Below, one piece after another: positions 3,561-49,061 of a stretch of 50,851 nt of DNA. This DNA comes from Pseudomonadota bacterium. GTDB lineage: Bacteria > Myxococcota_A > Polyangia > Palsa-1104 > JAEUJZ01. The position numbers and the translations under genes were made by a program. Each line of letters begins with the position of its first letter. Position 1 is the first letter of the stretch. The stretch spans positions 1 to 50,851 of the forward strand of contig DAOMZC010000001.1 of NCBI GenBank assembly GCA_035437965.1. The letters run 5' to 3'. The notes under the pieces are model-generated. The model did no database searches. It was not told the DNA's origin and saw nothing but the letters and a program-made list of their open reading frames with translations.

Positions 3561-3583
3561 AGGGAGGGTCCGGACGGGCGGCG

Positions 3584-4918: not shown

Positions 4919-4961
4919 CAGCAGTCCTTCGCGGCCCAGGCAGCAGGGTAGCTTGGCGGCT

Positions 4962-4990: not shown

Positions 4991-5099
4991 CTATTTATGT
5001 TCCTCCAGGCTTTTGCGCTCTCGGCTTGCGCGAGCAAAACAGGGGCTCTCACTAGCGCGGGAATTTCCCCTTGTTTGGATACCTGTACTACCTGGCTGC

Positions 5100-8000
5100 T
5101 TAGAACGAGAGCCGCGCGCCGAGCCGCATGTAGAGCGGGGCCTGGTAGGCGGTCGGCTGGCCGTAGTTACTGTTTAGGACCAGCGGCTGGCCTTCCTCGG
5201 CGCGCAGGTGGGCGAGGTCTGCAGCCTTGCCTCCTTTTATCGGGCCGACCACCGAGTAGGTGTAGTCGTCATCGACGCTTACCACCTGCTGCTGGTTTAG
5301 CAGGTTTATCACATCGGCAAAGACCAGCAGCGCGACCCGCTTTGCGAACTTGTGCTCGTAACCGACGTGCAGATCGAGCTGCGTAACGATGGGGGTGCGA
5401 CCCCCGGTGCCGCGCGGCAGAATGAACACCTGGCTCGTTCCATACAGCGGGTGCCCGCCGAGCACGTTGATGGGGCGGCCGGAGAACGCGGTACCGGTAA
5501 GGCTCAGCGTCAAGCTGCCGCTCTGTCCCAGCGGCTGGATATAGGTCCCGAGGAGCTTTACGTTGTGCGGCCGATCGGTGGGGAGCGGGCCGTTGCGGTT
5601 GGCGGCGAGGTCGGGCGAGTCGAACGCCAGGGAGATATTGGGAGCGAAGTCTCTTGTATGCGCGTCGTACGGACCGGGGTAGTTCCCAAGGGTGCGCGAG
5701 AAGGTGTAGCTCGCCAGCACGCTGAAGCGATTCGACAGCCGCTTCTGCGCCGTGAGGACCAGCGCGTGGTAGTTGCGCGTGGCGCGGCTCGTGGTGCTGC
5801 TGATGGCGCGATATCCGGTGAGCTGGCGCTGCACATTCATAAGCTCGGCCTGCGCCGCGGGGCTCTTGTCCTGCTTCAGCTCGGCGATCCGCTGCTCGTA
5901 CTTTTGCACCTGGGCTTCATCGATGGGCGCGCCGGGGTTGCCAAGGATGGCCGCGCCGGTCGCGTCGACCCCCACGTCTTCCACGACGCTGCCGAGGGTC
6001 CGGTAGACATAGCCGACACCGAGCACGAAATCCAGACCGACGTCGTACACAAGGCCGGCCGAGACCTCGTCCAGGTACTGGCCCTTCACGCCCGGCTCGA
6101 CCAGGTAGGGGTCGCCGGCGATCAGGAACTGCGGACTGTTCACCGAGCAGGGGGCGCCCGGCGCTGACTGCGGCACCGGCAGCGGACGCCCGCCCGGGGT
6201 AAGCGGCACGCGCGGGCAGTTCGCGGCGTTTGGTCCCACGATCGCCCCTCGGCCGGCAAAGGCGCGGTCGTTGATGCTCAGCGGCAGCGATTCATAGAAC
6301 CGGCCGTAGCTCGCATACAGCTTGGAGCGGCCCTTTCCCGTCGCGTCGTAAGTGATGCCGAGGCGCGGCGCCAGGTTATCGTAGATGCCGACCTGCCGGC
6401 TGCCGAGCTGGTCGAAGATCTCCTGCGCCTCCCAGCGGAGGCCGGCGTTTACCACCAGACCCGGCACCCAGCCGACGGTCCAGCTGTCGCGCAGATACAG
6501 GCTGACGTTGCGCGTTGCGGTCACCGACCTGTAGCTATCAAGGCGCTCGCCGCTGCCGTCCGCGGCGCGCACTCCGTACTGCTGCGTGCGTCGCAGCCGT
6601 AGGCCATCCGGGCTGGTCTGCCAGGTAGTGTGTCCCGAAAACGGATCCCCGGGATCGAGGTCAGGGCCGGTAGAGAAGCGGTTATTGTCGTAGCTCAGGT
6701 ACTCGAAGTCAGCGCCCAGCTTGAGGGCGTGCGTGCCGCGCAGCGGGTTGTGGCGGCCGCCGGCGCTGACGAACATCGTGGCGCTCGCCAGGAGCTGGTG
6801 GCGCAGCAGCACCGTCAGGCTATAGGGACCGTAGCCCCCCCGCCTGTATTGAGTCAGCGGACAGGGGTTCGACAGGCTGCCATCGGGCAGCGGCTGGCGC
6901 CGGCACTCGGGAACGTCTTCGAAGTCGGACAGGGAGTACGGATCCGCGCGGTCGGCAAAGTAGACAAAGGAAGCCTCGCCCTGGTTTGCCGGCTCTATAT
7001 GCTGGCCCTGATAGTGGAAGCCGTACATCACATCGAGCTGCAGGCGCCGCTCCAGCAGCTTGCCGGTGTAGCGCGCGGACGCATCGTGCTGCTGATTCAG
7101 GGTGCTCACCTGCTTGTCGGGAACGTTGGCGTAAAGGAACGGCCGCAGGACCCCATAACCATAGGACTCGGTTGGCGAGGCGATGTAGCTGAGGGTGATG
7201 TTGTGGTTCGCGCTCAGGTTGAACTGCAGCTTGGCTACTCCGTTATAGAGCCGCGTCGACTCTGTATAAGGCTGGGTGCGGTCGGGCAGCGCAGCGGTCT
7301 CGGTGGCCAGGCTGCCGAGGCCCTGCTGGCAGGTATCGAAGGCCAGATATCCAAGGCGGGTGCAGGGCAGGCTCCGCGGCTGGCCGCTGCTGTCGAGCAC
7401 CTGGCGCCGCACTTCCCGCTCGTGCGCGTCCTGGCTTAGGGTGGGAGCGAAGCCGATGTAGAACCAGATGCGGTCCTTGACGATCGGTCCGCCGAGCTCG
7501 AAGCCGACGTCGAAGCCCAGGGCGCTGCTGCGCGTACGCAGTCCGAGCGACTCACCCAGCCGGGCCACCGTATTGGGCTCCAGCTGGAAGGGGTTTACCG
7601 ACCCGAAGACGCTGCCATGGAACTCGTTGCTGCCGCCCTTGGTGACGATGCTGATGATTCCTCCGGTGGCGCGTCCGTACTCGGCCTGGTAGCCGCTGGT
7701 GATGACGTTGATCTCTTTTATGAAGCTCTGGTGGAGCTGCGTGGCGAGCACGCCGGTGTTCGGATCCGAGGTGTTCAGTCCATCGATGAGGAAGTTGTTC
7801 TCGACCCCGGTGGAGCCCGACAGGGAGACGCCGACATCGCCGCCGAGCCCGCGCGGCGCGTCCACCGCGCCCGGGGCCAGCTGCAGGGCGCTCTCGAAGG
7901 TACGCCCGCGCAGGGCGCTGCTCTGTAGGAGCTCCTGATTAAGCTCCACGCCCGAGCTGGCGCTTGCGGTGTCCACATTGGGCGCCCGCTCGCGGATCAC

Positions 8001-8453
8001 CTGGACCTGCCGCGTCTGTTTCTGCGTGGCTATCTGGACATTGATGGTCAGGGTCTTGTTCTGCCCGATGCGCACGCCGGGGCGCTCGACGACCAGGTCG
8101 GCGAAGTAGAAGCGCACTACGTAGCCGTCGCCGGAGGGCAGCTGGGTGATCAGGTAGCGCCCGTCGCGATCGGTGACCTCGGTCTGCTCGCCCTGCAGCG
8201 CGGGTCCGCTTACGACCACCGTGGTCCCGGCCAGCGGCGCTCCGTCCACGTCGCGCGTCACCAGGCCGCCGATCTGACCCGGCTGCACCTGGGCGCGCGC
8301 TGGGCTCAGCATGAAGAGCACTCCCAGCAGCGTAACCACGCCGAGCGCCGCTGCATCGGCGGCGGGCGCCCCAAGGCGCAGCGACCGGAAGGGTACGATT
8401 TCATTACGTTTAAACCCGAACCGATAAAGAAGGTCAGTTGCCATGGGCGGCAC
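5100..8453 (-). CDS. Oar-type TonB-dependent outer-membrane receptor with an N-terminal carboxypeptidase-regulatory-like domain
   Basis: 1117 aa. Signal-like hydrophobic segment ending ...SPARAQ. Carboxypeptidase-regulatory-like segment (VTRDVDGAPLAGTTVVVSG...TDRDGRYLITQLPSGDGYVV). Plug motifs (ENNFLIDGLNTSDP; INVITSGYQAEYGRATGGIISIVTKGGSNEFHG). Long Gly/Tyr/Asn-rich barrel region and a C-terminal ...LGARLSF aromatic terminus. The start could be Met4 (8444). Confidence 0.85.
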   Translation of the reverse strand: MPPMATDLLYRFGFKRNEIVPFRSLRLGAPAADAAALGVVTLLGVLFMLSPARAQVQPGQIGGLVTRDVDGAPLAGTTVVVSGPALQGEQTEVTDRDGRYLITQLPSGDGYVVRFYFADLVVERPGVRIGQNKTLTINVQIATQKQTRQVQVIRERAPNVDTASASSGVELNQELLQSSALRGRTFESALQLAPGAVDAPRGLGGDVGVSLSGSTGVENNFLIDGLNTSDPNTGVLATQLHQSFIKEINVITSGYQAEYGRATGGIISIVTKGGSNEFHGSVFGSVNPFQLEPNTVARLGESLGLRTRSSALGFDVGFELGGPIVKDRIWFYIGFAPTLSQDAHEREVRRQVLDSSGQPRSLPCTRLGYLAFDTCQQGLGSLATETAALPDRTQPYTESTRLYNGVAKLQFNLSANHNITLSYIASPTESYGYGVLRPFLYANVPDKQVSTLNQQHDASARYTGKLLERRLQLDVMYGFHYQGQHIEPANQGEASFVYFADRADPYSLSDFEDVPECRRQPLPDGSLSNPCPLTQYRRGGYGPYSLTVLLRHQLLASATMFVSAGGRHNPLRGTHALKLGADFEYLSYDNNRFSTGPDLDPGDPFSGHTTWQTSPDGLRLRRTQQYGVRAADGSGERLDSYRSVTATRNVSLYLRDSWTVGWVPGLVVNAGLRWEAQEIFDQLGSRQVGIYDNLAPRLGITYDATGKGRSKLYASYGRFYESLPLSINDRAFAGRGAIVGPNAANCPRVPLTPGGRPLPVPQSAPGAPCSVNSPQFLIAGDPYLVEPGVKGQYLDEVSAGLVYDVGLDFVLGVGYVYRTLGSVVEDVGVDATGAAILGNPGAPIDEAQVQKYEQRIAELKQDKSPAAQAELMNVQRQLTGYRAISSTTSRATRNYHALVLTAQKRLSNRFSVLASYTFSRTLGNYPGPYDAHTRDFAPNISLAFDSPDLAANRNGPLPTDRPHNVKLLGTYIQPLGQSGSLTLSLTGTAFSGRPINVLGGHPLYGTSQVFILPRGTGGRTPIVTQLDLHVGYEHKFAKRVALLVFADVINLLNQQQVVSVDDDYTYSVVGPIKGGKAADLAHLRAEEGQPLVLNSNYGQPTAYQAPLYMRLGARLSF

Positions 8454-8611: not shown

Positions 8612-9316
8612 TCACAGCGCGGTGGCGCGCAGGCTGGGAACTTCTTGGGCCGGCCTGTAGGTCAGCTCGGACTGGAGGCGATCGAAGAAGCCGACCCACA
8701 GCTTCCACATCTTCTCTGCGTTGCGGATGATCTCGTCCATCTGCGCGGGCGCGAACGTGGCCGTGACTGCCGCATTGGCGCGGACCACGTGCTCGGGCTC
8801 TTGACAGATATGGATGTCGACCCACGGGAGGGCGTCGGCGCCGGTCGTCTTGCGCACCGCGTGGCCGATGCCGGACACCATCGTAAGGTCCGCCACTTCC
8901 GTTCCGTAAAGGAATCCCAGCGCCTCCATGGGCTGCGCGGACGCCTGGGCGTAGCCTTCGAGCAGCTTGCGAGTCTCGGGCAGCGGCGCCGTCTCGGTCA
9001 GCGCCGACTCGGTAAATCCCACTGCGGTCATCGTGTCGACAAAGACCCGCTCATGCGCGAGCTGGGGGTTCCCTTCGCCAAGCTCTTGATACAGAATCTT
9101 CGAGACCTCGGTCTTGGTGTCCTGCCGGGGAAGCACGGAGATTGTCCGCGCCAGGAACACCGGGAAGTAGTGCAGCGGATGCCACCACTGCCCAAGAAAA
9201 GTTCCGGCATCGGCGCGGGTAATCGCAGTGTCGCGGACATGCTGGAAAAAGGGGTGGCAGAGGAGCGCATTCCTGCTCTCTTGGCGAGCGAGGATTTCGA
9301 CGATTCCAGAGCTCAT
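8612..9316 (-). CDS. Heme-oxygenase-like diiron oxidase/oxygenase (HDO; PqqC/TenA/CADD-fold iron-containing redox enzyme)
   Basis: 234 aa. N-terminal LLCHPFFQHV...FLGQWWH is typical of the fold. Candidate metal-ligand motifs are YQELGEGNPQLAHERVF (E..E......H), LYGTEVAD (E) and VDIHICQEPEHV (H....E..H). Confidence 0.7.
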   Translation of the reverse strand: MSSGIVEILARQESRNALLCHPFFQHVRDTAITRADAGTFLGQWWHPLHYFPVFLARTISVLPRQDTKTEVSKILYQELGEGNPQLAHERVFVDTMTAVGFTESALTETAPLPETRKLLEGYAQASAQPMEALGFLYGTEVADLTMVSGIGHAVRKTTGADALPWVDIHICQEPEHVVRANAAVTATFAPAQMDEIIRNAEKMWKLWVGFFDRLQSELTYRPAQEVPSLRATAL

Positions 9317-9410: not shown

Positions 9411-10658
9411 TTACAAGGGATTTACTTCAAACAGGGGAAAGTAGGACTCGATCTTCCCTTCGCAGTACTCCGCGGCGAGCTGTGGAATCTCTTCCCACTT
9501 ATAGACTCTGTCGCCAGCAACCGGGGGACGCCAGTTCATCGCTTCCGCCGCCTGCACTGCCTGCCAGGCTTCGGTGTCGCGCGACCCATGGGTGTTGACG
9601 TGGATGTGGCGGTTTATGCACTCTAGTCCCCGCATGATCGACAGCCGCATGCCGTGCTTCCAGCCCGAAGTCGCAATCACCCCCTGGCGGCCCAGGGCCT
9701 TTAGCGTCGCGCGAAAGACCGGCGCACCGATGTTGTCGATGAAGATGGAGACGCCCTCACCCTGCGTGTGCTCCGCGACCAGGTGTAATAGATACTCCTC
9801 GGCCTCCCGGTAGCGATCGCGGTAGGCTGGATCGCGCTGATAGAGCTCCTCATCGAAAGCCAGGCCCGAGAACCGGCTGCGATCGATGGGCCGGATTCCC
9901 ATCTTCTCGATCAGCGCCAGCCGCTTGGGCGAGGAGCCGATCATCGCCGTCTGGCAGCCGAGCTGCCGCGCCAGCGCGAGCTGCGCCAGCGACACCCCGC
10001 CGCCCCAGCCCCAGACGTGCACCTGTTCCGGCGCGAGCTCGGGCATCTGCGCCCGCCAGCAGCCCCAGGCCACCTTCCAGTTGTCCCAGGCGGTCAGATA
10101 GCGCACCGAAAACGCCGCCCACTCCTGCGCCGTGAAGGTAGAGTGTCCGGGCAGCGGAATCAGGCAGCGCGCCGGCATCTTGCTCTGCTTGGCCAAAAGC
10201 CCGATCGTGCCCGGCGCGTCGAAGCCCAGGACCTTGAGCGTATAGCCGTGCTTGTCCTTGATCACGTTCCCATCAAGGAGGCACAGGTCCCCGGCCTTCA
10301 CCGAAGTGACCGCGGCGCCGGGGCGCAAGACGCGCACGACGCCGGAGTTCCCGATCACCACCGAGCCCTCCTGCCGCAGGCGGCAGATATCCACCGGGCT
10401 GCGCTGCAGCGCGTGGCTCATGTTGGCTTCCCAGCAGCCATAGATCGGCTCGACCAGGACTTCGTCGGGGGTGATATTGGGAAAGCTGAACTGCTCACGC
10501 TTTAGCTGCGCGCTCTGCGGGTCCGCGCCGTTCCCTTGCCCCTGATAGAGGACCCAGGCTTCTGTCGTAATCTTGTTCAGGGTCGAGCTGTGGCTCGTCA
10601 CGGTGGGTCCCCAGTTACCTTGAGGCGCCGGCGATTTGTATTTGGCGCTAGATGTCAT
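9411..10658 (-). CDS. MDR-superfamily oxidoreductase, crotonyl-CoA carboxylase/reductase-like in length and motif pattern
   Basis: 415 aa. GroES-like N-domain segment (DEVLVEPIYGCWEANMSH...VIGNSGVVRVLRPGAAVTSVKAGDLC). Nucleotide-binding segment VHVWGWGGGVSLAQLALARQLG, which resembles the CCR pattern IWGASGGLGS..A.QFA as I recall it. The ATG lies inside the last 11 nt of the sulfotransferase gene. Confidence 0.7.
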   Translation of the reverse strand: MTSSAKYKSPAPQGNWGPTVTSHSSTLNKITTEAWVLYQGQGNGADPQSAQLKREQFSFPNITPDEVLVEPIYGCWEANMSHALQRSPVDICRLRQEGSVVIGNSGVVRVLRPGAAVTSVKAGDLCLLDGNVIKDKHGYTLKVLGFDAPGTIGLLAKQSKMPARCLIPLPGHSTFTAQEWAAFSVRYLTAWDNWKVAWGCWRAQMPELAPEQVHVWGWGGGVSLAQLALARQLGCQTAMIGSSPKRLALIEKMGIRPIDRSRFSGLAFDEELYQRDPAYRDRYREAEEYLLHLVAEHTQGEGVSIFIDNIGAPVFRATLKALGRQGVIATSGWKHGMRLSIMRGLECINRHIHVNTHGSRDTEAWQAVQAAEAMNWRPPVAGDRVYKWEEIPQLAAEYCEGKIESYFPLFEVNPL

Positions 10659-11880
10659 AGTTTAGCTGTCTCGCAACTTGCACCGTCATCGAGTGCAGCG
10701 GCTGAGGGGGCTTGGGCTGCTGAACGCGGGCGAGCTCCGGCTGGATCCGCTGGCGCTGCTGCAGGCCGGGGTCGCCGACCCCATCGAGCATGCGCTCACC
10801 CTGGTAGGGGTTGAGGACCGCCGGATCGAACTCGACGCCGAGGAAGCTGCAGACCCTGCGCATCACCGGCTCTGGACTCTGCACGAGCTCCTCGTAGCGC
10901 ACCCAGTGCTGACGGGCTTCAGGGATGGTGGCGAGGAAGGTCAGGGCGTTCTGGGTGTAGATCGCCCACAGCTTTTCGGCAAAGAGGAAGGGGTTGTCAT
11001 CCCAGAAGCCGAACCAGTTCTGCAGCCAGCGGTTGAAGCGGTTGCGCACCATCGACTCCAGGACCGGGTAGGGGTGGCGCCCGATGAAAAGATACTTCGG
11101 CTGCGCGAACATCTGCTCGGCGCGCTGCAGCCAGCCCACGTGCGCCTGGTAAAGGGGCGACTTGTCGACCACCAGCCGTCCCCCGGCGCGCTCGCCGAGC
11201 CGCGCGTAGACCTCGGCCATCGGCAGGTTCTGCGCTTCAAGCTCGCCGACCTGCCGCTCCGCCTCCTCGTACGTAACGCGGCCCAGGTGCATGAACGCCT
11301 GCGGCAGACCCGTGTGAAACCCATCCACCCCCGCCTCGCGCAGCTCCTGCCGCTTGGCGCCCAGGGTGTCGAAGGGCAGCAGGTTCAGCTCCGGTGGAGA
11401 GAACAACGCCGGGTGCCCGGTCAGCATCGCGCGCAGGAGCGTCGTTCCCGAGCGCGGTGGACCCAGCAGGAACACCGCTGTAGGCCGCGCCTCTCCGGCC
11501 GTATCAGGGGGATACGGCGCGGGCGGCTTGAAGGTCCAGGTGCCCCCTTCATGGGGATCCGCGTACCCGGCCGCAGGGGCAGGGGGCTGGATCTCGCTGA
11601 TGATGTAAGTCGCGAGCTCGCGCAGCGTAGTCCTTCCGGCCAGCTCCGCCGGCATCAGCCACAGACCGAGCTTCTCATGAAGCCGCGGCAACAGCTCGTC
11701 CGCCAAGACCGTGGGGTCTTGCCATGCGGCCTTGATTTCAGCAAATGCAGCAGTCGGTGCCACCGCCGCCGCCGGCCTATCCGCAAGCTCCGCCGCCCAG
11801 GCCGGCAGGTGCGTCAGCAGGAGCTCCGTGGCGTCGGCCCGGGGCAGGGTGCGGAGCTTTTCGTAAAGGTCTCTGCTCAT
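10648..11880 (-). CDS. PAPS-dependent sulfotransferase of the CurM/OLS 'activating ST' type, with an N-terminal carrier-protein-like domain
   Basis: 410 aa. 5'-PSB loop LLGPPRSGTTLLRAMLTGHPALFSPPELNLLPF. Also VVDKSPLY, a 3'-PB-like FIGRHPYPVLESMVR, and RYEELV...LNPYQGERM. This order and wording match my recollection of the CurM ST domain. The ATG is 1 nt after the TAG of the TE gene. Confidence 0.85.
   Translation of the reverse strand: MSRDLYEKLRTLPRADATELLLTHLPAWAAELADRPAAAVAPTAAFAEIKAAWQDPTVLADELLPRLHEKLGLWLMPAELAGRTTLRELATYIISEIQPPAPAAGYADPHEGGTWTFKPPAPYPPDTAGEARPTAVFLLGPPRSGTTLLRAMLTGHPALFSPPELNLLPFDTLGAKRQELREAGVDGFHTGLPQAFMHLGRVTYEEAERQVGELEAQNLPMAEVYARLGERAGGRLVVDKSPLYQAHVGWLQRAEQMFAQPKYLFIGRHPYPVLESMVRNRFNRWLQNWFGFWDDNPFLFAEKLWAIYTQNALTFLATIPEARQHWVRYEELVQSPEPVMRRVCSFLGVEFDPAVLNPYQGERMLDGVGDPGLQQRQRIQPELARVQQPKPPQPLHSMTVQVARQLNYDI
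11581..11838 (-). other. Degenerate (serine-less) carrier-protein-like domain at the N-terminus of the sulfotransferase
   Basis: ST residues about 15-100. WQDPTVLADELLPRLHEKLGLWLMPAELAGRTTLRELATYI aligns with one gap to the ACP of the 2582-aa PKS in this window ([40 protein letters not shown]). The phosphopantetheine Ser position reads Pro (DS -> DP). Confidence 0.5.
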
Positions 11881-11881
11881 G

Positions 11882-14335
11882 CTAGTTTCCCAGCCTGGCT
11901 CTGCTCAGGCACTCCGAGAGCTTCGCTGCCACTACCTGAATGTGCGGCTCGCCGATGAAGGTCATGTGGTTGCCGGGCACCCGGTGAATCTCCGGCTCGA
12001 CCTGCAGCGCGTCCCACCCCAGCTTCTCGCTGCGGGTGTCGTTTTCCCAATCGGTGGCGCGGAAGATTATGGCGCGCATGGGGACGACATCCTTGGGCTC
12101 GTAAGGCATCTGCAGCTGCAGCTTGAAGACCTCGAGCAGGTGGCGGGCGGTGGTCACTTCTTCACCCGAGGCCATGATGTTATTGGCGCGCAGCCAGCCG
12201 GCAAACTGCGCCCACTGGGCCTCGGCATCCGGCGAGCTCGGGGGCTCATAGGGGGCGACGATCTTGTCGGCCAGGACCTCTTCGAAGGTGACTACATACT
12301 CGGCAATCCACTGCGCGGTGGTCTCGTGCTGCAGGCGCTTTACCAGGTGCGGCGCCTCGGTATCGAACAGGATGAGGCACGCCACCTGCTCACCGGCCTT
12401 GAGCAGCCGCTGGGCCATCTCGTAGGCGATAAAGCTGCCGAACGAGTGGCCGCCAAGATAGTACGGGCCGTGCGGCTGCAGGCGCTTGATCGCGGCCAGG
12501 AAGTGCGCGGCCATGGCCTCGACGGTGGTGTGCGGGCTGCTCTGTCCATCGAGCCCTGCGGCCTGCAGACCATAAAACGGCTGCTCCGGATCCATGTAGC
12601 GGGCCAGATAGTACATGTAGAAGATCGTCCCGCCGGCCCCCGGCGCCAGGAAGAACGGAGGCTTGCTGCCATTTGGCTGCACCGGGACCAGCGCCGAAAA
12701 GAGAGCGTCCGCGCTCTGTCCCTTGACCACATCTTGAATCAGCTTCGCCAGTCCGACGATCGTCGGGTTCAGGAGCAGCGCCGAGATCGGGAGCTGAATC
12801 CCAAACTGCTGACGGATCTGGCCGACCAGCCGGATGGCCAGCAGCGAGTGACCGCCGAAGTCATAGAAGTTATCGTGCGTACTTACAGAGGGCAGGTTGA
12901 AAAGCTTCTGCCACAGCTGCACGAGCGCCTGCTCGACCGCGTTGAGCGGCGGCACAAACTGGCGGGCGGTCGCCGCCCGCACGGGCGCCGCCGCAACGGG
13001 CGGAACCTCGCCCTGCGGAATCGTCTGTATGAGCGCGCCCAGAGAACGGTCGGCGACCGCCGCCGCGAGAAGGTTCTTCAGGTGAAGAGCGAGCCGCTCG
13101 ACATCGGCGGCCGTAAACGCGGCCCGGCTGTAGACGAACTTTACGTGCAGCCCCTCGTGCGGGAACACCGTGATGGTCAGCGGATACTGGGTCTGGGCGC
13201 CGATCGAGCGGACATCGCTTACCGTAAACGGCTGACCTGCTGCGGGCGCGGTCGGCAGCGGATAATTTTCAAAGACCAGCAGGCTGTCGTAAAGCCGGAA
13301 GGTGGGGGGAACTTTGCTCCACTGGTGGATCTGGCCGGCGGCAGCGTACTCGTAGCTCTGCTGCTCCAGGGTCTGGGCGGCCAGCGCCTGCAGCCAGAGT
13401 GAAAGAGTCTGCTCCGGTTTTACTTCTACCCGCAGCGGCACCGTGTTGATAAACAGACCGACCATGGTCTCGACGCCCGGCAGCGCCGCCGGACGGCCCG
13501 AGACCGTGATCCCGAAGAGGACCTCCGCGGCCCCGCTGTAGCGGGCCAGCAGCAGGGCCCACGCCCCTTGCATCACCGTACTCAGGGTCACCTGGCTCTG
13601 CCGCGCCAGCGTGCGCAGTTCTTGCAGCAGGCTCGCCGGCAAGAGCAGCTCGTGGTCACCAAAGCCGGTCGCTTCCGCGGGCTCAAGCCGCGCCGGAGCC
13701 AGCGGCGTGGGGCCGCGGAAGCCCTGCAGGCGCTTGCGCCAGAACGCTTCGGTCAGCGCCGTGTCCTGCCGCTGCAGCCAGCCTACATACTCGCTGTACG
13801 GACGTACAGGCGGCAGGCGTAGCGCGCGGCCGGCGCACTCTGCCAGGTAGACCTCGTGCACCTCGCGCAGCACGATCGGCAGCGCCCAGCCATCGAGCAG
13901 GATGTGGTGCGTGGTCCAGACGGCCTGATAGCTCTGCTCACCAAGCTGCAAGATCGCCAGCCGCATCAGCGGCACCTTGCCCAGGTTGAAGCCGAGCACC
14001 CGATCGGCGCGCAGAAACTCTTCAAGCCGCTGCGCGCTTTCCGCCGGGGAAGCGGCGCGCCAGTCCTGCCAGGAAATCTGCAGCCCCGGCTGCCGCAATA
14101 CAAACTGCAGCGGCTCGGGCTGATCCTTCCACAAAAAGCCGGTGCGCAAGCCCGAGTGGCGCATAAGGATCTGCTGCCACGCCCGCTCATAAGCGGGCCG
14201 ATTCAAGACGCCTTGCCACTGCCAGAGAAACTGTTCGATCTGGCGACCCGAAGCGGGGAAAGCCAGCGTCTCGAGCAGCATCCCCTGCTGCGAAGGAGTC
14301 AGCGGATATAACGCTTCGACCGGATTGGTGCTCAT
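11882..14335 (-). CDS. NRPS termination protein C-T-TE, without an adenylation domain
   Basis: 817 aa. C domain (YPLTPSQQGML, HHILLDGWA; about 13031..14335). Only about 27 residues later comes the T domain (FYDFGGHSLLAIRL, Ser497; about 12731..12952). The TE follows (GGHSFGS Ser631, PGNHMTF His790; about 11885..12673). No A-domain core motifs (TSGSTGxPKG, YGPTE, YxTGD) anywhere in the ORF. Confidence 0.9.
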   Translation of the reverse strand: MSTNPVEALYPLTPSQQGMLLETLAFPASGRQIEQFLWQWQGVLNRPAYERAWQQILMRHSGLRTGFLWKDQPEPLQFVLRQPGLQISWQDWRAASPAESAQRLEEFLRADRVLGFNLGKVPLMRLAILQLGEQSYQAVWTTHHILLDGWALPIVLREVHEVYLAECAGRALRLPPVRPYSEYVGWLQRQDTALTEAFWRKRLQGFRGPTPLAPARLEPAEATGFGDHELLLPASLLQELRTLARQSQVTLSTVMQGAWALLLARYSGAAEVLFGITVSGRPAALPGVETMVGLFINTVPLRVEVKPEQTLSLWLQALAAQTLEQQSYEYAAAGQIHQWSKVPPTFRLYDSLLVFENYPLPTAPAAGQPFTVSDVRSIGAQTQYPLTITVFPHEGLHVKFVYSRAAFTAADVERLALHLKNLLAAAVADRSLGALIQTIPQGEVPPVAAAPVRAATARQFVPPLNAVEQALVQLWQKLFNLPSVSTHDNFYDFGGHSLLAIRLVGQIRQQFGIQLPISALLLNPTIVGLAKLIQDVVKGQSADALFSALVPVQPNGSKPPFFLAPGAGGTIFYMYYLARYMDPEQPFYGLQAAGLDGQSSPHTTVEAMAAHFLAAIKRLQPHGPYYLGGHSFGSFIAYEMAQRLLKAGEQVACLILFDTEAPHLVKRLQHETTAQWIAEYVVTFEEVLADKIVAPYEPPSSPDAEAQWAQFAGWLRANNIMASGEEVTTARHLLEVFKLQLQMPYEPKDVVPMRAIIFRATDWENDTRSEKLGWDALQVEPEIHRVPGNHMTFIGEPHIQVVAAKLSECLSRARLGN

Positions 14336-39604: not shown

Positions 39605-42600
39605 ACGGAGTCGCTCTGTAGTAGGGCTTCCAGCTCGGCGAGCTCCGCGGCCAGCGAGGCGTCGACCTCGGCCGCGGAGAGTCTACCTACTTCGGCGGCC
39701 AGACCGCCGGGGGTCGCGGCTCCTGCCGGGACCTGGACGGTCGGCTGCCGGGCTGGCGGCGGCAGGTGGAGCACGTCGCTCGCCAGGTAGGTGATGAGCG
39801 CGTCGAGCCGGGGATACTTGAAGGTCAGGGTCGCCGGCAGCCGACACGCCAGACTCACTTGCAAGCGGTTGCGGAGCTCCATCGCCAGCAGGGAGTCGAG
39901 CCCCATATCCGTGAAGCCGCTCTGCCAGTCGGTGAGCTCGGGCTCGGCGATCCGCAGCACGGAGGCCAGCTGCTGCTGAACGTGGGCGGTGAGCCGCTGA
40001 TGCTGCAGCGGGCCGGCAGTGGCGGCGAGCTGCTCGCGGAAGCTGCGCTCCTCTTGGGCGGCCGACACGGCCTGCGGCTCGTTGGCGCTCGCCAGGGTGG
40101 CGAAGAACAGGCGATGGCGGGAATCAATCAGGCTGGCCAGAAAGGCGGGCCAGTGGATGGGAATCACCCCCGCCTGCACGCAGCCGCTCTGCATCAGTGC
40201 GGCCAGCGCCGCCAGTGCCGCAGCGGGCTCCATCTGGGTGATGCCGGCGGACTTCCACTGGCCGACGCGCTGGCTGTCGACCGCCGCCGCCATGCCCAGC
40301 TGGCGCCATGGACCCCAGTCGATGCTGAGCGCCGGCAACCCCTGCTGCCGACGGAAGTGGGCGAGTCCATCGAGAAAACTATTGGCGGCAATGTAGTTGC
40401 TCAGGCCGCGATCGCCGAGCAGCGCCGCCCCCGCTGAATACAGCACGAAGAAGTCGAGCGGCAGCGTGCCCGTCAAGCAGTGCAGGTTCCACGCGCCCCG
40501 CACTTTCGGTCTGAAGGCGTTCGTGAACGAGTCCCAGTCGTGGTTCTGGATCAGGCGATCGGCGAACGTTCCGGCGGCGTGGATGATCCCGCGCAGCGGC
40601 GGCATGGACGCTTGGATGTCAGCCAGAATCCGGGCGAGCTGCGCCGGCTCGGCAACATCGGCCTGGGCAGTCACCAGCTGCGCCCCGGCAGCCTCCAGCT
40701 CCCCGAGGGCGGCCCGCGTCGCCGCGTCCGCGGCCCGGCGCCCGACCAGCACGAGGTGGCGCGCGCCCCGGGCCACCAGCCACTGCGCCGTCGCGAGGCC
40801 CAGACCGCCCAGACCGCCGGTAATCAGGTAGGTGCTGCTGTCCCGAATCGGCAGGGGCCTCTGCGCGGTGGGCGCCGTACGCTGAAGGCGCGCTACGTAG
40901 CGCTGTCCGTTCCTGAATAAGAGCTGACTCTCTGCCGCGGGCTGCAGGACTTCTTCCACCAGGCCCGCTGCCGCATCCGCCGCACCCGGCTGCAGATCGA
41001 TCAGCGTGCAGCGGAGCTCTGGATGTTCGAGCGCGATGCTGCGACCAAGCCCCCACAGCGGCCCCGCGGCGAGCGGCCCGGGGTCGGCGTTCAGCGTCTG
41101 CTCCGCGGGAAGCACGTGGCCGCCATAGGTGACGAGCCAGAGCGGCGGTGGCGCAGCAAGGTTCAGCAGCGCCTGCGTCAGGTGCAGCGCGCTCCGGCTG
41201 CCGACGGCAATCGCCTGGTCCAGCTCGTCCGCGGTCATCGCCGCGGTGACCGGCGCCGCCCACTCATGCACGACGCCGGCGAGCGGTCCCTCTTCGCTGA
41301 GCAGGCGCTGGAAGTCGGCCGCGCTGTCCGTCATGCAGACTGCGCCCGCGCCATCGCGCGCGTAGGCGCTCCCGCGATAAACCAGGGTACAGCGTTCCCC
41401 CCGACTGCGTAGCTCTGCCCCGAGCGTCTCGCCGGCCCTGCCCGCACTGGTAAACAGCAGCCAGCGTCTCCCTGCCGGCTGCTGGCCTGCGCTGGGCGCT
41501 GCTGCATCGCGCGCTGCGGCAGGCGCCTGGGCGATGACTACCGCAGCAGACTCACTGCCCGCTTCGCCGTCCGCCGCAACCTCCATTGCCGCTGCAAAGC
41601 CCTGCGCGGTCAGGAGGTCGCACCACTTTTGCGCGCTGAGCAGCGGATAGTCAGGGCGCAAGTCGGCATCGGCAAACCGCCACCAGCCCTCGGTGAGCCC
41701 GAACACCAGATCGATCCACGGCTGGCGGCTGGTGACCTCCACCAGGATGACGAGGCCGCCGGGCGCGAGCAGGCTCTGTACGTTGGCCAGCGTCGTCCGC
41801 AGGTCCTGCGTCGCGTGCAGTACGTTGGCGGCAATCACCACATCGTACTGCTGGCCAGCAAAGCCTTGCGTCGCTGGGGCCTTTTCGATATCGAGGCTCT
41901 TATATTGGATAAATGGATAATCTTTTAGCTGCTCGGCGGCGCGCAGGAGGAAGGCCGATCCTATATCGGTAAATACATATTGAGTGCGCTCGGCGGCAAG
42001 GTACGGCAAGAGGTACGTGGTCATCCCGCCGGTGCCCGCGCCCACTTCCAGAATGCGCAGGCCCTGGCGGGCCGGGAGCTGCGCCTGGATGGCCGCCAGC
42101 ACCTGCTGCGCCAGCGTGTGGACACGGCGTATGATCTGCGACTCCCGGTAGACTCGCATCGCCATCTTCAGATCGCCGCCGGGAAACAGCAGCTCCAAGG
42201 GATCGAGCTGACCGCTTAGGACCTGGGCCAGGTTCGCTCCGCAGCGGGTGAGCAGCGCCAGCTCGGCACCGACGAGCGCGTCTTGTCCTGCTGATTCGCC
42301 TTGCAGGCGCTGTAGCTCACTTGCCGCGGCCGCGTCGAGCCGCCATCCGTCTCCCTCCTTCCGGACGAGGCCGGCCGCGTCCAGGATGTGCAGCAGGCGC
42401 ACAAAGAGCCGCGCGTGAACGTGGCTGATCCGCAGCTTGGTAATTAGCTGGTCGGCTGTCAGTCGCTGCCCGGGGAGCCAGCCGAGCTGCGTCAGCGCCG
42501 CATGAATGTACGCCACCGCGAGCCGATCCAGATACGCGTAGGCAGCGCGCTGCGCCGGCTGCGAAATCGCCGCCCCATCACCCTCCGCCACCCGCTTGCC

Positions 42601-45600
42601 CTGGCGCAGCGCTTCGTCACGCACCGCTGGCAGAAGCTCTGCGGCGCCGAAGGTCTGGTTGCCGGACGCGCCGAAGCGAGCGGCGGGCAGCCACTGCAGG
42701 GCATAGAGCCAGTTCTTCCACTCTGCCTCGCCGAGCAGCGCGGCCCGCTCGACTTGCTGCATCGTCACGCCGGTAAGCGTGGCCAGCGCCTTTCCGCCCG
42801 GGCCCTGGATATGCAAGTCCGCGGTGCGCCTTGCGGCTCCCGCTTCGGCATCGGCGGAGTGAACTTCAAGGGTGAACCACAGCTCGCGCGCGGGGCGAGC
42901 GTACAGTCGCAGCGCGTCGACGCCGACTTGAACATAGGGCCGGCTGGCGTCATCTTCGACCAGCACGGGCAGAAGCTCCAGACAGGCGGTCAAGATCTGG
43001 GGATGCAGGTGGTAGCTGGCCGGCGTCAGCAGCTCATCTGGTACGTGAAATCGGCCGCGCAGGGAGCTGTCTTTTCGCCAGAGCTCCTCCAGGCGCGGCC
43101 TGGGCACCGCGCTTCCGGCCAGGGCTTGTTCGCGCGCGCTGCGCACCGCATCGAGCGCGGTCCAGCCGCTCGCTTCCTGACTCGGCCCGGGGTGGCTGCT
43201 GTTCGCGCTCGGCTCGAGCGGGGAGCTCGGCTCGCTACGCTTTATTACGCCCGTCGCGTTCAAAGCCCACGCAAGCGCATCCTGCTGCCCAGTCGCTCCC
43301 GCGCCGCCCATCTCGGCGTCCTGCGCGGGCAAGCTGTAGACCTGAAACTCGAGCTGGCTGCCCACTGGAGTCACGATGCACTGCAGCGTGAGCGGCTGGT
43401 CCGCCGCCAGAAGCAGGGCCTTGTGCAGGCGGACGGCTGCCAGCTCGACCAGCTCGCCACCGACGGCAAGCTGGCCCGCAGCCAGGCCCATCTCGTAGTA
43501 CCCGCTGGCGGGAAAGACCGAGCTGCCGCCGAGCTGGTGGTGCGCCAGATAGGCGGGGTCGGTGGCGCTGACTTGCGTCTCGAACTGGATGGCGCGCAGC
43601 GGTGAAGGCAGCCGCTGACCGAGCAGGGGATGGACGCTGGCGGCGGCTCGGCCGGACCGTACGGCGCCGCTTTCCGGAGTGGCGGAGGCCGCTGGCGCCC
43701 TGTGATAGCGCGTGCGCTGGAACGGATAGGTAGGCAGGCGGACCCGCCGGTGCTGCTCACCTGCGGCGACCTTCTTCCAGTTGATCTGGGCGCCGCGTAC
43801 ATAGAGCTCGCCAAGGCTCCTCAGGATGACTTGCCGGTCCGCGGCTCCGGCGCGCAAGCTGGGCAGCAGCGCGTGACCGGAAGCGCCGTCGGCTTCCAGG
43901 CTGGACCTTGCCAGGCCGAGCAGGACCGGACTCGGACCCACTTCGACAAGCACGCTGTGGCCGTCTGCCTGCAGCGTCTGAACGCCCGCCGAAAAGCGCA
44001 CCGGCTGCCGGACCTGGTGCACCCAATATTCAGCCGTCGCAACGGCGCTTTTGGCCCGCTCTCCAGTTACCGTAGACACCAAGGCGAGCCGCGGCGGCGC
44101 AAAGGCAAGGGTCCTGGCCAGCGCCGCATACTCACCCAGCATCGGCTCCATGAGCGGAGAGTGAAAGGCGTGCGAGACCTCAAGCTCTCGGGTCTGAATC
44201 GCCTGCGCCGCAAGCGCCTTCATCACCGCTTGCACCGCCGACCGCGCACCGGAGATGGTCAGGTGCTGCGGGCCGTTATATCCGGCGATGGCGACCGTGT
44301 CTTCATACGGCGCCAGTGCGGCGCGCACCGCGTCTTCACCGGCCCAGACGGCAGCCATCATTCCGGTCTGCGGCAGCGCCTGCATCAGACGCCCGCGCGC
44401 CGCGACGAGCTTGAGGGCATCTTCAAGCGTGAAGACCCCCGCCACGCAGGCGGCCACCAGCTCACCGACGCTGTGCCCCATCACCACGTCCGGGAGGACT
44501 CCCCACGATTCCCACAGGCGGGTCAGCGCATACTCCACCGCGAACAGCGCTGGCTGGGTATAGACAGTCTGCGCCAAGGTGGCGCGGGCCCCGGCGGCTC
44601 GCTGCTCATCGGGATAGAGCACTTCGAGCAGCGGCGCTTCCAGGTGCGTTCGCAAGAGCGCATCGCAGCGATCGAGCGCCGTCCGGAACACCGGCTCGGA
44701 CTCGTAGAGTGCCCTCCCCATGTTGACGGACTGGGCGCCCTGGCCGGTATACAGAAACACTACGCGCGGTCGCTGACCCGGCGCGGGCTGGCCGGTCCGC
44801 AGCGGCTCCGCGGCAGCCTGCGGCAGCTGCGCTAGCGCATCCTCGGCCGTCTCTGCGACAAGGGCCAGCCGGCACTCAAAGTGAGCTCTCCGGGTGCTGG
44901 CGGTGTAACAGACATCGGCCAGAGCCTGGTCCGGATGGCGGCGCAGGTGGTCGTGATAGCGCTGGGCCAGCTCCTGCAGCGCCGCCGGTGTCTTGGCCGA
45001 GAGCACCAGCAGCTCGTGCGAGCGGCGCTCTTTCTTCTCTGCAGCTTGCTCGGATGCGGCCGGGCGCGGACCGGGTGGCGCCTCTTCCAGAACCACATGC
45101 GCGTTGGTCCCGCCGATGCCCAGCGAGTTTACGGCCGCGCGCCGCGGGAATGCCGCCGCTGGCCAGTGCCGCAGGGCGGTGTTCACATAAAAAGCGCTGC
45201 TGGCAAAGTCGATGCGCGGATTGGGCGTCTGAAAGTGCAGGCTCGGATAGATCTGCTGGTGCTTGAGCGACAGCACCGCCTTGATAAGGCCGATCACCCC
45301 GGCGGCCGACTCTGTATGGCCGATGTTGCTCTTGACCGAGCCGATGGCGCAGACCTGCTCTGCGCCCATCCGATAGGCTTTATTAAGGGCGAACATCTCC
45401 ACCGGATCGCCAAGCTCGGTGGCGGTTCCGTGCGCTTCGACGTACCTGATCGTATCCGGCGGGACTTCCGCCACCGCCAGCGCCGCCGCCATCGCATCGA
45501 TCTGACCGTCGGCGCTGGTGGCCCAGAAGCTGATCTTGTCGCCGCCGTCATTGCTGATCGCCGAGCCGCGAATCACGGCGTCGATCTCGTCGCCATCGGC

Positions 45601-46397: not shown

Positions 46398-46763
46398 CTA
46401 CTCGGCCTTATCTCGGGCGCGCTTGCGCAGGTCACGCTGGTGTTCACGGCTGCTGGCGCCGCGCGGGGAGCTCGGCGCGGGGGAGTCGTCAGCCGCCGGG
46501 GCCTGCTCGGCGGGGAGGAAGCACTTTTCATAGGCCCGGCACAGATCGTCCACGGTGCGGATGCTGGTTACCGGCACCAGGTTGGCAAATGGATCCGCGT
46601 CCAGCTCGATCTCGATGATCGCGACGATGCGCGCCAGATCAAGCGACTTGAAGCCGATGTCTTCGACCAGGGTGTGGTGCGCGACGATGCGGTCGGCGGG
46701 GATCGATCTTTCTTGCGCGACGCGCTGGAGGGCGGCGAACACCGCCTGGGCTACATGTTTCAT
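46398..46763 (-). CDS. Free-standing acyl carrier protein with a charged C-terminal tail
   Basis: 121 aa. Carrier-protein serine motif EDIGFKSLDLARIV. A roughly 40-aa Pro/Ala/Arg/Asp-rich tail. The stop is 2 nt from the ATG of the first PKS gene. Confidence 0.8.
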   Translation of the reverse strand: MKHVAQAVFAALQRVAQERSIPADRIVAHHTLVEDIGFKSLDLARIVAIIEIELDADPFANLVPVTSIRTVDDLCRAYEKCFLPAEQAPAADDSPAPSSPRGASSREHQRDLRKRARDKAE

Positions 46764-46835: not shown

Positions 46836-47624
46836 CTAGCAGCTGAGCCCTCCGTCGATGGCGATGGTCTGTCCGGTGATGAAGCTCGCCTCGGGCGACA
46901 TGAGGAAGCGAACGAGCCCCAGCATGTCTTCCATGGTGCCGAGCCGGCCAAGCGGGGTGCGGCGGACGATCCGGTCGAGCTGCGCTTCCCCCAGCAGGTC
47001 GCGCGCGCCGTCGCTGAGGAAGTAGCCCGGGGCCACCGAGTTGACGCGGATTCCCGCCGGTCCCATCTCGCGCGCCAGGCTGCGCGTCAGGCCGTCGATC
47101 GCCCCCTTGGTCGCGCTGTAGACCGAGATCCCGGCATTGCCGCGCAGGCCATTTACCGACGAGATATTGATGATGCAGCCGCGCCGCTGCTGCAGCATGC
47201 TCTTGAGGCAGCTCTGGGTCAGGTAGATCGGCGACTCGAGGTTGATCTTCAGCTGGCTGTCGATGTCATCGCTGCGCATCATGGTGAGGATGTTTTCCAC
47301 CACGATCGCCGCGTTGTTGATGAGGACATCGACCTTGCCGTAGCGACGGATCACGGCGCGCGCAAAGCTCTGCACTCCCTGCACGTCGATGGCGTCGATG
47401 GCCTGCCAGTAGAAGCTATCGCCTTTCTCATCGCGGGCCAGGCAGTGCGCGATATACGGCGTCTGCGTCCGGCTGAAAGTAGCGACTATGTGACCGCGTC
47501 CAAGCAGGTCGGCGACCAGCGTCTGCCCGAGGCCCTTGCTGCCGCCGCTGACGATGACGACCTGCCGGGCGGCGGTGGGAGGTGAGTCTGGCCAGGCCGG
47601 CGATGGGGGCTGTACGGGTTGCAT
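46836..47624 (-). CDS. Classical short-chain dehydrogenase/reductase (FabG-like)
   Basis: 262 aa. Rossmann motif VSGGSKGLGQTL, NNAA, and the catalytic SS...YSATKGA (S...YxxxK). About 20-aa Pro-rich N-terminal extension. Confidence 0.85.
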   Translation of the reverse strand: MQPVQPPSPAWPDSPPTAARQVVIVSGGSKGLGQTLVADLLGRGHIVATFSRTQTPYIAHCLARDEKGDSFYWQAIDAIDVQGVQSFARAVIRRYGKVDVLINNAAIVVENILTMMRSDDIDSQLKINLESPIYLTQSCLKSMLQQRRGCIINISSVNGLRGNAGISVYSATKGAIDGLTRSLAREMGPAGIRVNSVAPGYFLSDGARDLLGEAQLDRIVRRTPLGRLGTMEDMLGLVRFLMSPEASFITGQTIAIDGGLSC

Positions 47625-47636: not shown

Positions 47637-49061
47637 CTAGCTGGCGGTGCGGATCTTCTTGAAGCGTTCGTTGTGCAGGGGCTGCCCGGCAACGCGCACG
47701 ATGGCTGGTACTTTGAACGCGGGCAGCTGGGACTGGCAGAAGGAACGAACGCGCTGCTCGACCGCCGCGGGCTCCTCGGGCTGGTCGAGGGTGACGGTCG
47801 CGGTGACGATGTTGCCGACGATGGCGTTGGCCTTGCCCTTGACGGTTACGTCTTTGATGTTCGCAACCTGCAGGACCACGTTTTCGATCTCGGCCGGGAA
47901 CACTTTCTCACCGCCGACGTTTATGATCTCGCTCTTTCGTCCGAGGATGCGGACATACTCCCCGTCCACTTCCACCATGTCGCCGGTGTTGAGCCAGCCG
48001 TCTGCTTCGAAGGGATTGGGCGCGTTCAGATAGCCGAGCATCGCCTTGGGCGAGCGCACCCAGAGCTGCCCATCAATCACCTTGGTCTCGATTCCTTCGC
48101 CGTCAATCTTGATCCATAGCGAGCCCGCCGCCTGCGACTTGAGCCGCAGCGGCGGCCCTTCGGAGAACGCGTAGGTCTGCTGCAGCCGCACCCCGGGCAG
48201 GACCGCCTGCAGCTGCTGCAGCGTGCTCTCGGGCATCACTTCGGTGCCGTAGGTGAGCAGCTTGAGCGAAGACAGATCGTAGCGCCGGTAGGCTTCCGAG
48301 ATCAGCAGCAGCTTGAGGAAGGTGGGCGAGGTGGGGAGCAGCTCGACGCGGTGGGCGGCGACCGCCTGGCAAACGGTCTCGGGATCGCGCGCCGCCAGCG
48401 GGATCATCGTGCCGCCGCTCGACAGCACATAGAGCAGGGTGTTTATCCCGCCCAGGTGATCGAAGCTGAGGAACGTAATCGTGCACATGCTGCGCCGCTG
48501 CTCACGATAGGTCTCCATGAACTTGCTTAGATCGTGCAGGATGGCCTTGGGCTTGCCCGTCGAGCCCGAGGTGAACGCGATCAGTCCGGGGGTGCCGCTC
48601 GCGCGCAGGCGCGCGACCAGAGGATGCGGGGTCTGGCCGGCGCGGCTCTGTACTTGCCAGCGCTCGTCGTCACCCATCAATAGGAAATCGATGTCCGCTG
48701 CGGTATTGCCAGAGGGCGGCGCCGGGCTCTGGGAAGGAGTCGGGAGCTGCGTAAGCACCACGTCGGCCGCCACCGCCGCGAACAGCTCTTCGTGCTGCGC
48801 CGCCGTCGCCATGGTCAGCGGCACCAGGGTCGCGCCGTGCTTGATGAGAGCCAGGATCAGGGCACAGGCATAAGGGGTGAAGTCCGCGCGCACCACCACG
48901 GTCTGCCCGGGCAGAATCTGCCGCGCCGCAAAGCCGCGCTGCCAGCCGGCCCCCATTTCCAGCAGCTCGGCGTAGGTCGTCGTCCGCGCCCCACGGATCA
49001 TCGCCTGGCGCTTCGGCCACTGAGCCATCCGTTCGAATATCCAGTCGGTTCTCATGGACAT
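47637..49061 (-). CDS. ANL-superfamily acyl-AMP/acyl-ACP (or CoA) ligase, stand-alone
   Basis: 474 aa. AFTSGSTGKPKAILH (A3), LLTYGTEVMP and QTYAFSEG (A5 region), WLNTGDMV (A7), GRKSEIINVGGEKVFPAEIE (A8), and a C-terminal ...ERFKKIR lysine. First gene of the operon. Met3 (49055) is an alternative start. Confidence 0.85.
   Translation of the reverse strand: MSMRTDWIFERMAQWPKRQAMIRGARTTTYAELLEMGAGWQRGFAARQILPGQTVVVRADFTPYACALILALIKHGATLVPLTMATAAQHEELFAAVAADVVLTQLPTPSQSPAPPSGNTAADIDFLLMGDDERWQVQSRAGQTPHPLVARLRASGTPGLIAFTSGSTGKPKAILHDLSKFMETYREQRRSMCTITFLSFDHLGGINTLLYVLSSGGTMIPLAARDPETVCQAVAAHRVELLPTSPTFLKLLLISEAYRRYDLSSLKLLTYGTEVMPESTLQQLQAVLPGVRLQQTYAFSEGPPLRLKSQAAGSLWIKIDGEGIETKVIDGQLWVRSPKAMLGYLNAPNPFEADGWLNTGDMVEVDGEYVRILGRKSEIINVGGEKVFPAEIENVVLQVANIKDVTVKGKANAIVGNIVTATVTLDQPEEPAAVEQRVRSFCQSQLPAFKVPAIVRVAGQPLHNERFKKIRTAS

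Follow-up and report, generated by a model that had tools for sequence, protein, structure and literature searches.

Sulfotransferase (ST) domains of the CurM type are known from fusions in which they work on the preceding carrier domain. In CurM and olefin synthase, a holo-carrier in cis presents a (3R)-hydroxyacyl substrate for sulfonation, and the thioesterase (TE) that follows carries out hydrolysis with decarboxylative loss of the sulfate, which yields a terminal alkene. In haliamide biosynthesis in Haliangium ochraceum, HlaB carries an ST with 41% identity to the CurM ST and a TE with 37% identity to the CurM TE (PMC6274090), and ST-containing homologues without a TE probably yield sulfated metabolites (PMC11730487). 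A free-standing ST is found in the sulfazecin pathway, where SulN N-sulfonates L-diaminopropionate (L-Dap) in trans on the last carrier before TE release, and where the TE of SulM uses a Cys and forms the beta-lactam (PMC11298585). Here we describe a CurM-type ST that is encoded as a separate protein behind a serine-less acyl carrier protein (ACP) domain, in a polyketide synthase (PKS)/nonribosomal peptide synthetase (NRPS) cluster from a Polyangia metagenome-assembled genome (MAG; deposited as Pseudomonadota bacterium, GenBank assembly GCA_035437965.1). The window analyzed is the complete 50.85-kb MAG contig (DAOMZC010000001.1, 50,851 nucleotides). The gene, hereafter psiACP-ST, is real and conserved far beyond chance; about 50 homologues are built in the same way, and we assign this architecture (a dead carrier followed by a CurM-type ST) with very high confidence. 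In the source annotation its product (HRI48538.1) is named "sulfotransferase", with nothing further. The gene and its parts are as follows (aa, amino acids).

10648..11880, minus strand: psiACP-ST gene, 410 aa; Ser-less carrier domain, conserved linker and CurM-type ST; N-terminus MSRDLYEKLRTLP
11581..11880, minus strand: psiACP domain, aa 1-100, PKS-type ACP fold; helices 0 (aa 2-11), I (14-33), II (56-71), III (77-81) and IV (86-97)
11710..11724, minus strand: former phosphopantetheine site W53-Q54-D55-P56-T57, with D55-P56 instead of Asp-Ser where helix II starts
11482..11580, minus strand: family-specific linker, aa 101-133, with conserved D108, G112, W115, aromatic 117 and P120 (DPHEGGTWTFKPP)
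10651..11481, minus strand: ST domain of the CurM/olefin synthase (OLS) type, aa 134-410, from Pfam, PDB sequence matches and Foldseek
11437..11460, minus strand: PPRSGTTL loop, aa 141-148
11383..11397, minus strand: PPELN, aa 162-166, with E164 aligned to the Glu in the SPPELH motif of CurM

The ST domain was recognized both in sequence and in structure. Sulfotransfer_3 covered aa 136-353 (Pfam, 1e-30), and the best match among PDB sequences was the CurM ST (4gbm; 3.6e-65, 223 bits, over aa 125-410), followed by the OLS ST (4gox; 3.3e-60, 207 bits), whereas the next family, the tyrosylprotein sulfotransferases, reached only 1e-6. Identity to the CurM and OLS STs was ~41-45%. Both domains were confidently modelled by AlphaFold2 in the full protein (pLDDT 89.6, pTM 0.88), and based on the results of Foldseek the model superimposed on 4gbm and 4gox with target-normalised TM-scores of 0.88 and 0.93, respectively (root mean square deviation, rmsd, 2.2 Å), compared with values ≤0.53 for the remaining sulfotransferases. 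A sequence-only reading of this DNA had proposed a CurM-type ST on the basis of several strings, all of which were found (PPRSGTTLLRAML at aa 141-153, VVDKSPLY at 237-244, GRHPYPVLES at 267-276 and RYEELV/NPYQGERM at 328-364); the proposal stands, and instead of grouping with generic small-molecule sulfotransferases the domain had the CurM and OLS STs as its nearest relatives by either measure.

Residues R143, G145, T147, E164, D239, K240, R268 and S276 were invariant in all 50 family members compared. We take the PPRSGTTL loop to be the one that binds the 5'-phosphosulfate of 3'-phosphoadenosine-5'-phosphosulfate (PAPS), and R268 and S276 to belong to the RHP...S motif that binds the 3'-phosphate. 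The Glu of SPPELH corresponds to Glu60 of the CurM ST, the proposed catalytic base. Since the PAPS-loop residues and the Glu aligned to SPPELH are invariant in 50 of 50 members, the ST looks like an active enzyme. The His of SPPELH in CurM and OLS is replaced by N166, at a position that is variable across the family.

The carrier nature of the N-terminal domain was established from profiles and models. No PP-binding match (PF00550, E ≤ 0.1) was obtained for psiACP-ST with Pfam, aa 1-130 being without any Pfam match, and PF00550 was carried by none of the ~410-aa homologues. A profile of aa 1-100 built from 13 sequences matched a bona fide carrier-domain profile (hhalign 91%, E 1.1e-6), as well as ACPs in the PDB, including the DEBS ACP 2ju1 (1.2e-5), the Pks13 ACP (1.7e-3) and the CurA ACP (3.8e-3). 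Moreover, alignments of the query with megasynthases of the order ketosynthase (KS)-acyltransferase (AT)-ketoreductase (KR)-ACP-ST(-TE) took in the ACP as well as the ST, reaching back to query aa ~57 or ~11. The AlphaFold2 model of aa 1-100 alone (pLDDT 91) retrieved carrier proteins only among its top 50 Foldseek matches in the PDB (TM 0.6-0.8, rmsd ~2-2.5 Å, E only ~1e-2, as expected for a helical domain of 100 residues), including the mycolactone, MAS and DEBS ACPs and a peptidyl carrier protein from A. baumannii.

Helix II begins at P56 in the AlphaFold2 model, with Pro in the structural place of the phosphopantetheine Ser. MAFFT and hhalign put the Ser column one residue on, at T57, which is F, A, T, E or L in relatives and is unconserved; aa 44-72 contain no Ser at all, and position 56 was Pro in 23 of the 50 family members and Ser in ≤2. 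The earlier description of the first ~100 residues as ACP-like, with Pro where the phosphopantetheine Ser should be, was thus borne out: the four-helix carrier fold was found, and re-alignment uncovered no canonical Ser. The linker that follows holds a short strand at aa 112-115 and has a consensus common to the family (D..GG.W.W..P).

An exhaustive search of 1.84 billion representative proteins yielded 1,017 proteins at E ≤ 1e-30. Among the ~184 relatives analyzed from both protein searches, ~50 were free-standing, 390-450 aa long, and combined these two domains with the loss of the Ser; the top 150 relatives included ~50 clusters (50% identity) that share a W-x-D-P signature at the former attachment site (family consensus W-x-[DE]-P; W in 33, D in 25 and P in 23 of 50). 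In a neighbour-joining tree based on BLOSUM distances, all 54 free-standing Ser-less proteins formed a single clade, apart from the STs of CurM/OLS-type megasynthases and from free-standing proteins whose thiolation domain keeps GGxS (T-ST), such as that of Thiothrix nivea. With Kimura distances and bootstrapping, the exact Ser-less set appeared in 0 of 40 replicates and a close subclade in 25 of 40; since the exact set was never recovered, the monophyly of the Ser-less proteins is suggestive only.

Outside this family, CurM-type STs were nearly always located directly behind a live carrier, in proteins with the orders A-T-ST, KS-AT-KR-ACP-ST-TE, KR-ACP-ST-C-A-T-TE and T-ST (A, adenylation; T, thiolation; C, condensation), and the nearest relatives were PKS proteins of the type KS-AT-KR-ACP-ST(-TE). 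The NRPS megasynthases P0041-47 were considered for that place and rejected, given that their whole-protein E-value of ~1e-95 is the sum of two ST domains; their per-domain ST scores were 155-179 bits, and the PKS ACP-ST proteins and the CurM ST itself were closer to the query. Literature searches returned nothing relevant on stand-alone or Ser-less-carrier CurM-type STs, and the family is apparently undescribed.

Other architectures with CurM-type STs were observed in the same searches. A-T-ST proteins (~950-1,040 aa, with an adenylation domain, a live T domain and a CurM-type ST) were common in Proteobacteria, often with a TE-like gene nearby (loci L018, L027, L032, L033, L035-L038 and L042, among others; for example in Ramlibacter, Brevundimonas, Ancylobacter and Burkholderiales MAGs). 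The metagenomic proteins P0041-P0047 and P0130 were NRPS megasynthases with in-module CurM-type STs (C-A-T-ST-C...), some of them ending in T-ST-TE, and P0047 and P0130 contained a T-ST-psiT-ST arrangement in which the second T domain was without Ser. Among the 13 A domains that precede T-ST units in these proteins, five had codes for Ser (DVWHISLVDK-like), two for Thr (DFWNIGMVHK-like) and two were Tyr-like (DASTVAAICK), which suggests that hydroxy amino acids are widely O-sulfonated on the assembly line.

The genes on either side of psiACP-ST in the window, and the TE encoded next to it, are the following.

11882..14335, minus strand: C-T-TE gene, terminal NRPS module, 817 aa, without an A domain
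11885..12700, minus strand: TE domain of the ordinary type-I kind (PF00975); the nucleophile is the Ser of GGHSFGS
9411..10658, minus strand: crotonyl-CoA reductase (CCR)/zinc-ADH-like gene, 415 aa, whose start overlaps the psiACP-ST stop by 11 nt
8612..9316, minus strand: heme-oxygenase-like diiron enzyme gene (Haem_oxygenas_2), related to CADD and BesC

The C-T-TE gene ends ...GGA AAC TAG, followed by a single base (c) and the ATG of psiACP-ST, so that the tight coupling of the two genes, with one nucleotide between stop and start, was confirmed by read-out of the junction. Pfam assigned Condensation (2.5e-82), PP-binding (5e-16) and Thioesterase (6e-28) to the upstream protein. Its condensation domain has an intact HHxxxDG motif, the A domain is absent, and in the orthologous locus L073 the C-T-TE module is fused to the preceding module, A-T-E (E, epimerization). 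The similarity of the CCR-like protein to crotonyl-CoA reductase is weak (1.4e-16).

The sequence-only reading saw in this junction a split and permuted ACP-ST-TE arrangement. In the more speculative of its two options, a residue with a beta-hydroxyl, held on the A-less T domain, would be sulfonated by the ST, and the adjacent TE would carry out thioester hydrolysis and decarboxylative elimination, giving an unsaturated C-terminus. Such chemistry would be in line with the gene coupling, which recurs in the orthologous loci L073 and L074, with the CurM lineage of the ST and with the precedent of trans sulfonation before TE action in SulN/SulM (PMC11298585). It would also be in line with NRPS proteins from metagenomes that end in A(Ser/Thr)-T-ST-TE, whose PF00975-type TEs are 27-36% identical to the window TE, and with the T-ST-psiT-ST proteins, where a dead-carrier ST adjoins a live carrier. 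The TE itself points elsewhere. Its best PDB matches were the NRPS TEs AB3403 (8.6e-22) and EntF (2e-16), the CurM TE (3qit) was not among its PDB matches at E ≤ 0.01, its closest database relatives were plain T-TE proteins, and none of its top 120 database relatives contained a sulfotransferase domain. It was 80% identical to its orthologue, 36-41% to the TEs of ordinary T-TE proteins and 27-36% to TEs behind STs, and membership in an ST-associated TE clade was rejected on these values. Furthermore, the tails that follow the ST in the CurM/OLS-neighbour megasynthases of the tree gave no match to the window TE, and nothing lies downstream of the ST domain within psiACP-ST.

Nor do the A domains of the cluster supply a suitable residue. 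Their codes, read by hand from an alignment to GrsA (a later script for code extraction reproduced the GrsA code), were DVQFIAHLA (Pro-like), DLTKVGEVG (Asx) and DAFFLGVTF (Val/Ile); none was predicted to load a beta-hydroxy amino acid, and neither a Ser/Thr-specific A domain nor a beta-hydroxylase was evident in the cluster.

The position of the ST was compared among related genome loci, in a sample that was drawn by one peptide pattern and is biased for that reason. The ST adjoins the orthologous TE in three of four orthologous clusters, namely the window, L073 (where the ST follows the TE with a 20-nt overlap) and L074 (where it likewise follows the TE). In L004/L005, with a 69% identical ST and orthologous PKS genes, the ST has moved to the far end, where it adjoins the AMP-ligase gene in divergent orientation. 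The CCR-like and diiron enzyme genes follow the ST in the window and in L074 (1819-3836) only, and are not beside it in L073 and L004. A second type of cluster (L001, L006, L009 and L008, the last a Polyangium MAG) encodes STs 45-53% identical to the query in the order AMP-ligase, SDR (short-chain dehydrogenase/reductase), ACP, KS, A, psiACP-ST, 91-aa carrier, C-T-KS-AT..., with no TE near the ST. The relocation of the ST in L004/L005, the absence of a TE beside the same subfamily in type-2 clusters, the NRPS-type TE and the lack of a beta-hydroxy A code leave decarboxylative elimination on the A-less T domain without support, and we consider it highly improbable. The permuted ACP-ST-TE arrangement is likewise not supported, given the TE and gene-order results and the distant members of the family, which lie outside PKS/NRPS clusters.

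The type-2 loci L001 (1-11624) and L006 (1724-11549) also contain an acyl-CoA dehydrogenase, an FAD-dependent halogenase, a 528-aa free-standing A domain (code read as DLLYLALVC) and the 91-aa carrier, a set reminiscent of a (halo)pyrrolyl-carrier cassette in which the A domain and its carrier are separated by the psiACP-ST gene.

The neighbours of those distant members are glycosyltransferase genes, a TylF-like methyltransferase gene or unrelated genes, and the loci inspected had no PKS or NRPS gene within 10 kb. This would suit a carrier-independent general tailoring or housekeeping ST whose substrate is not the assembly-line product and whose gene simply rides in the operon. The close subfamily (46-70% identity), however, is always found inside PKS/NRPS clusters, in both architectures and translationally coupled to cluster genes, and we regard a general ST as the least plausible account, with a very small chance of being right. 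Wherever the contig extends far enough, the close subfamily is accompanied by the same partners: the AMP-ligase (1e-146 to 6e-230), the SDR (1e-93 to 1e-135), the 121-aa ACP (ACP121) and the first KS (1e-177 to 1e-227) have orthologues in both cluster types and, together with psiACP-ST, are the only gene set that the two types share. As this is the element common to both, the STs presumably modify the starter or first-extension part of the product. The genes and domains of the window that bear on that part are listed below.

47637..49061, minus strand: AMP-ligase of the starter cassette, conserved
46836..47624, minus strand: FabG-like SDR of the starter cassette, conserved
46398..46763, minus strand: free-standing 121-aa ACP of the starter cassette (GFKSLD)
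42721..43632, minus strand: degenerate dehydratase (DH) of PKS module 1, with HxxxGxxxxP present, HPQILTACLE for HPxxLDxxxQ and YGP lost
40303..40836, minus strand: KR of PKS module 1, with the catalytic Tyr present and an LDD-like motif that reads FAD

All cluster genes are on the minus strand. The cluster begins at its starter end with the AMP-ligase, SDR and ACP121, followed by PKS1 (KS-AT-DH-cMT-KR-ACP, where cMT is a C-methyltransferase), PKS2 (KS-AT-DH-cMT-ER-KR-ACP, where ER is an enoylreductase), a KS-AT-ACP-aminotransferase-C-A-T protein, two C-A-T-(E/C) proteins and the C-T-TE protein; beyond these come psiACP-ST, the CCR-like gene, the diiron enzyme gene and then transport genes. 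In the flank (262-8453), a TonB-dependent receptor (5100-8453), a RhtX/FptX-family MFS transporter (3584-4918) and two PvdE/SyrD-like cyclic-peptide ABC exporters (262-3560) form a set that resembles metallophore transport, and no classical iron-chelating building blocks were evident in the cluster.

A narrow version of starter modification would have the AMP-ligase load a keto- or hydroxy-acid on ACP121, the SDR make the hydroxyl and psiACP-ST sulfonate it before PKS1. The restricted set of shared genes argues for it, as does the direct adjacency of ST and AMP-ligase in L004. Against this, the best PDB matches of the AMP-ligase were generic acyl- and aryl-CoA ligases, which indicate no substrate, and the SDR could serve another purpose. 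In PKS2 (KR region within 31856-39604, minus strand) the KR has His where the catalytic Tyr is expected (QANHASAN, compared with SNYIAAN in PKS1), in a module that keeps canonical DH motifs and an ER, and judging from these motifs the SDR might instead act as a trans-KR for that module. We consider the starter-specific target possible but rather unlikely; it is a sub-case of the tailoring function favoured below, with the same chemistry.

The other candidate hydroxyl lies at module 1. Its KR appears intact and B-type-like, and the DH has lost both the catalytic Asp motif and YGP while keeping the His motif, with identical defects in the L004 orthologue. Between the window and L004, this DH is the least conserved domain of PKS1 (44%, linker-like; 64-76% for KS, AT, cMT, KR and ACP). 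By co-linearity, with module 2 fully reducing and module 3 giving a beta-amine, the module-1 beta-hydroxyl is the only chain hydroxyl predicted. The suggestion, made in the sequence-only reading, that the ST places a stable sulfate ester on this hydroxyl therefore gains support from the state of the DH and KR.

The same DH remnant invites a different outcome, in which the sulfate on the module-1 or starter hydroxyl would be a leaving group, eliminated or displaced in mid-pathway to give an alkene or a ring. A DH that keeps HxxxGxxxxP without its acid Asp, in the orthologue too, would be compatible with this, since a sulfate leaving group needs no acid, and CurM-type STs are known activators (PMC6274090, PMC11730487). 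The low, linker-like conservation of the domain fits decay rather than a new function, literature searches yielded no precedent, and the distant members of the family occur in non-PKS contexts. We rate mid-pathway activation as quite unlikely.

Based on these results, we favour, with no more than an even degree of confidence, psiACP-ST as an in-trans or post-release tailoring O-sulfotransferase that would act on a starter or module-1 hydroxyl of the lipid tail, the sulfate probably being kept. What the enzyme acts on, whether it does so on-line or post-release, and what becomes of the sulfate are inferred as follows. The protein would descend from a PKS-type ACP-ST didomain of the CurM/OLS kind, whose carrier lost its Ser and may be retained, tightly packed, for structure or docking. 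With the phosphopantetheine Ser lost (D55-P56), psiACP cannot hold a substrate, and since it cannot be loaded, the substrate has to come from outside, either on a real carrier in trans or as released product. Candidate targets would be the beta-hydroxyl left at module 1 by the intact KR and degenerate DH, and a hydroxyl on the starter unit provided by the AMP-ligase/SDR/ACP cassette. PAPS-dependent O-sulfonation with retention of the sulfate would then lead to a sulfated lipopeptide, released by the neighbouring ordinary NRPS TE, probably as a macrolactam via a beta-amino fatty acid, as in iturin-type compounds. Mid-line KR-ACP-ST-C-A-T-TE proteins exist (P0085 and P0088), and their architecture provides a genomic precedent for sulfation followed by further chain extension.

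Several observations weigh against this assignment. CurM-type STs are best known as activators, and the HlaB ST (41%) is no closer to CurM than psiACP-ST is (~41-45%). The near-overlapping TE and ST genes kept in three of four orthologous clusters could reflect a functional link to chain release. A target defined by the module-1 KR is not simply transferable to the type-2 clusters, where no cis KR lies beside the orthologous KS. The starter and module-1 hydroxyls are both compatible with these data, as are on-carrier and post-release timing. Finally, the conserved W-x-D-P site and linker suggest a specific role for the dead carrier, which tailoring leaves unexplained.

A further alternative, which we consider unlikely, is a trans-acting activating enzyme that would dock by its psiACP on a live carrier and add the sulfate as a leaving group. 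The sulfate could then assist an elimination at module 1, for which the His-only DH remnant would be the base, or the A-less T domain could be the site of a CurM-like decarboxylative elimination by the ordinary NRPS TE. If true, this role would extend ST-activated chemistry beyond fused ACP-ST-TE proteins.

Under the tailoring function that we favour, the psiACP-ST family points to enzymes that probably sulfate lipopeptides and other metabolites, and may be useful both for genome mining of sulfated natural products and for engineering of trans-acting sulfation. The locus also advises caution, as a CurM-like ST beside a TE need not be terminal-alkene machinery. The psiACP domain would offer a clear natural example of a carrier that has been turned to structural or docking use.

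Compared with CurM from the curacin A pathway and with OLS, psiACP-ST has the same ST lineage, the PAPS loops, the aligned Glu and a PKS-type carrier fold directly before the ST, but it is free-standing, with D-P for D-S in the carrier, Asn for the His of SPPELH and a family-specific linker. No CurM-type TE lies behind it, and the nearby ordinary NRPS TE is encoded upstream in a separate protein. HlaB likewise belongs to a myxobacterial-style PKS/NRPS hybrid, and its CurM-type ST is about as close to the CurM ST in sequence; the difference is that its ST-TE is fused at the PKS end, whereas the TE near psiACP-ST is without detectable similarity to the CurM TE. The T-ST didomains (~430 aa; the "phosphopantetheine-binding protein" P0029 of Thiothrix nivea) and the proteobacterial A-T-ST proteins share the order carrier then ST, yet they keep GGxS, pass Pfam PP-binding, have another linker and group separately in the tree. 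By role and gene position, SulN is alike in being a free-standing ST in an NRPS cluster beside a terminal T-TE, as in the window, L073 and L074 and not in L004, and by this analogy SulN/SulM may be the closest known example of an ST that acts in trans where an NRPS ends. The present system differs from it in having a TE with Ser (GGHSFGS), no A domain in the last module, no Dap-type A domain and an ST with a dead carrier. Against all of these, the CurM-type ST lineage is seen here in a free-standing form, with a carrier that is dead yet conserved.

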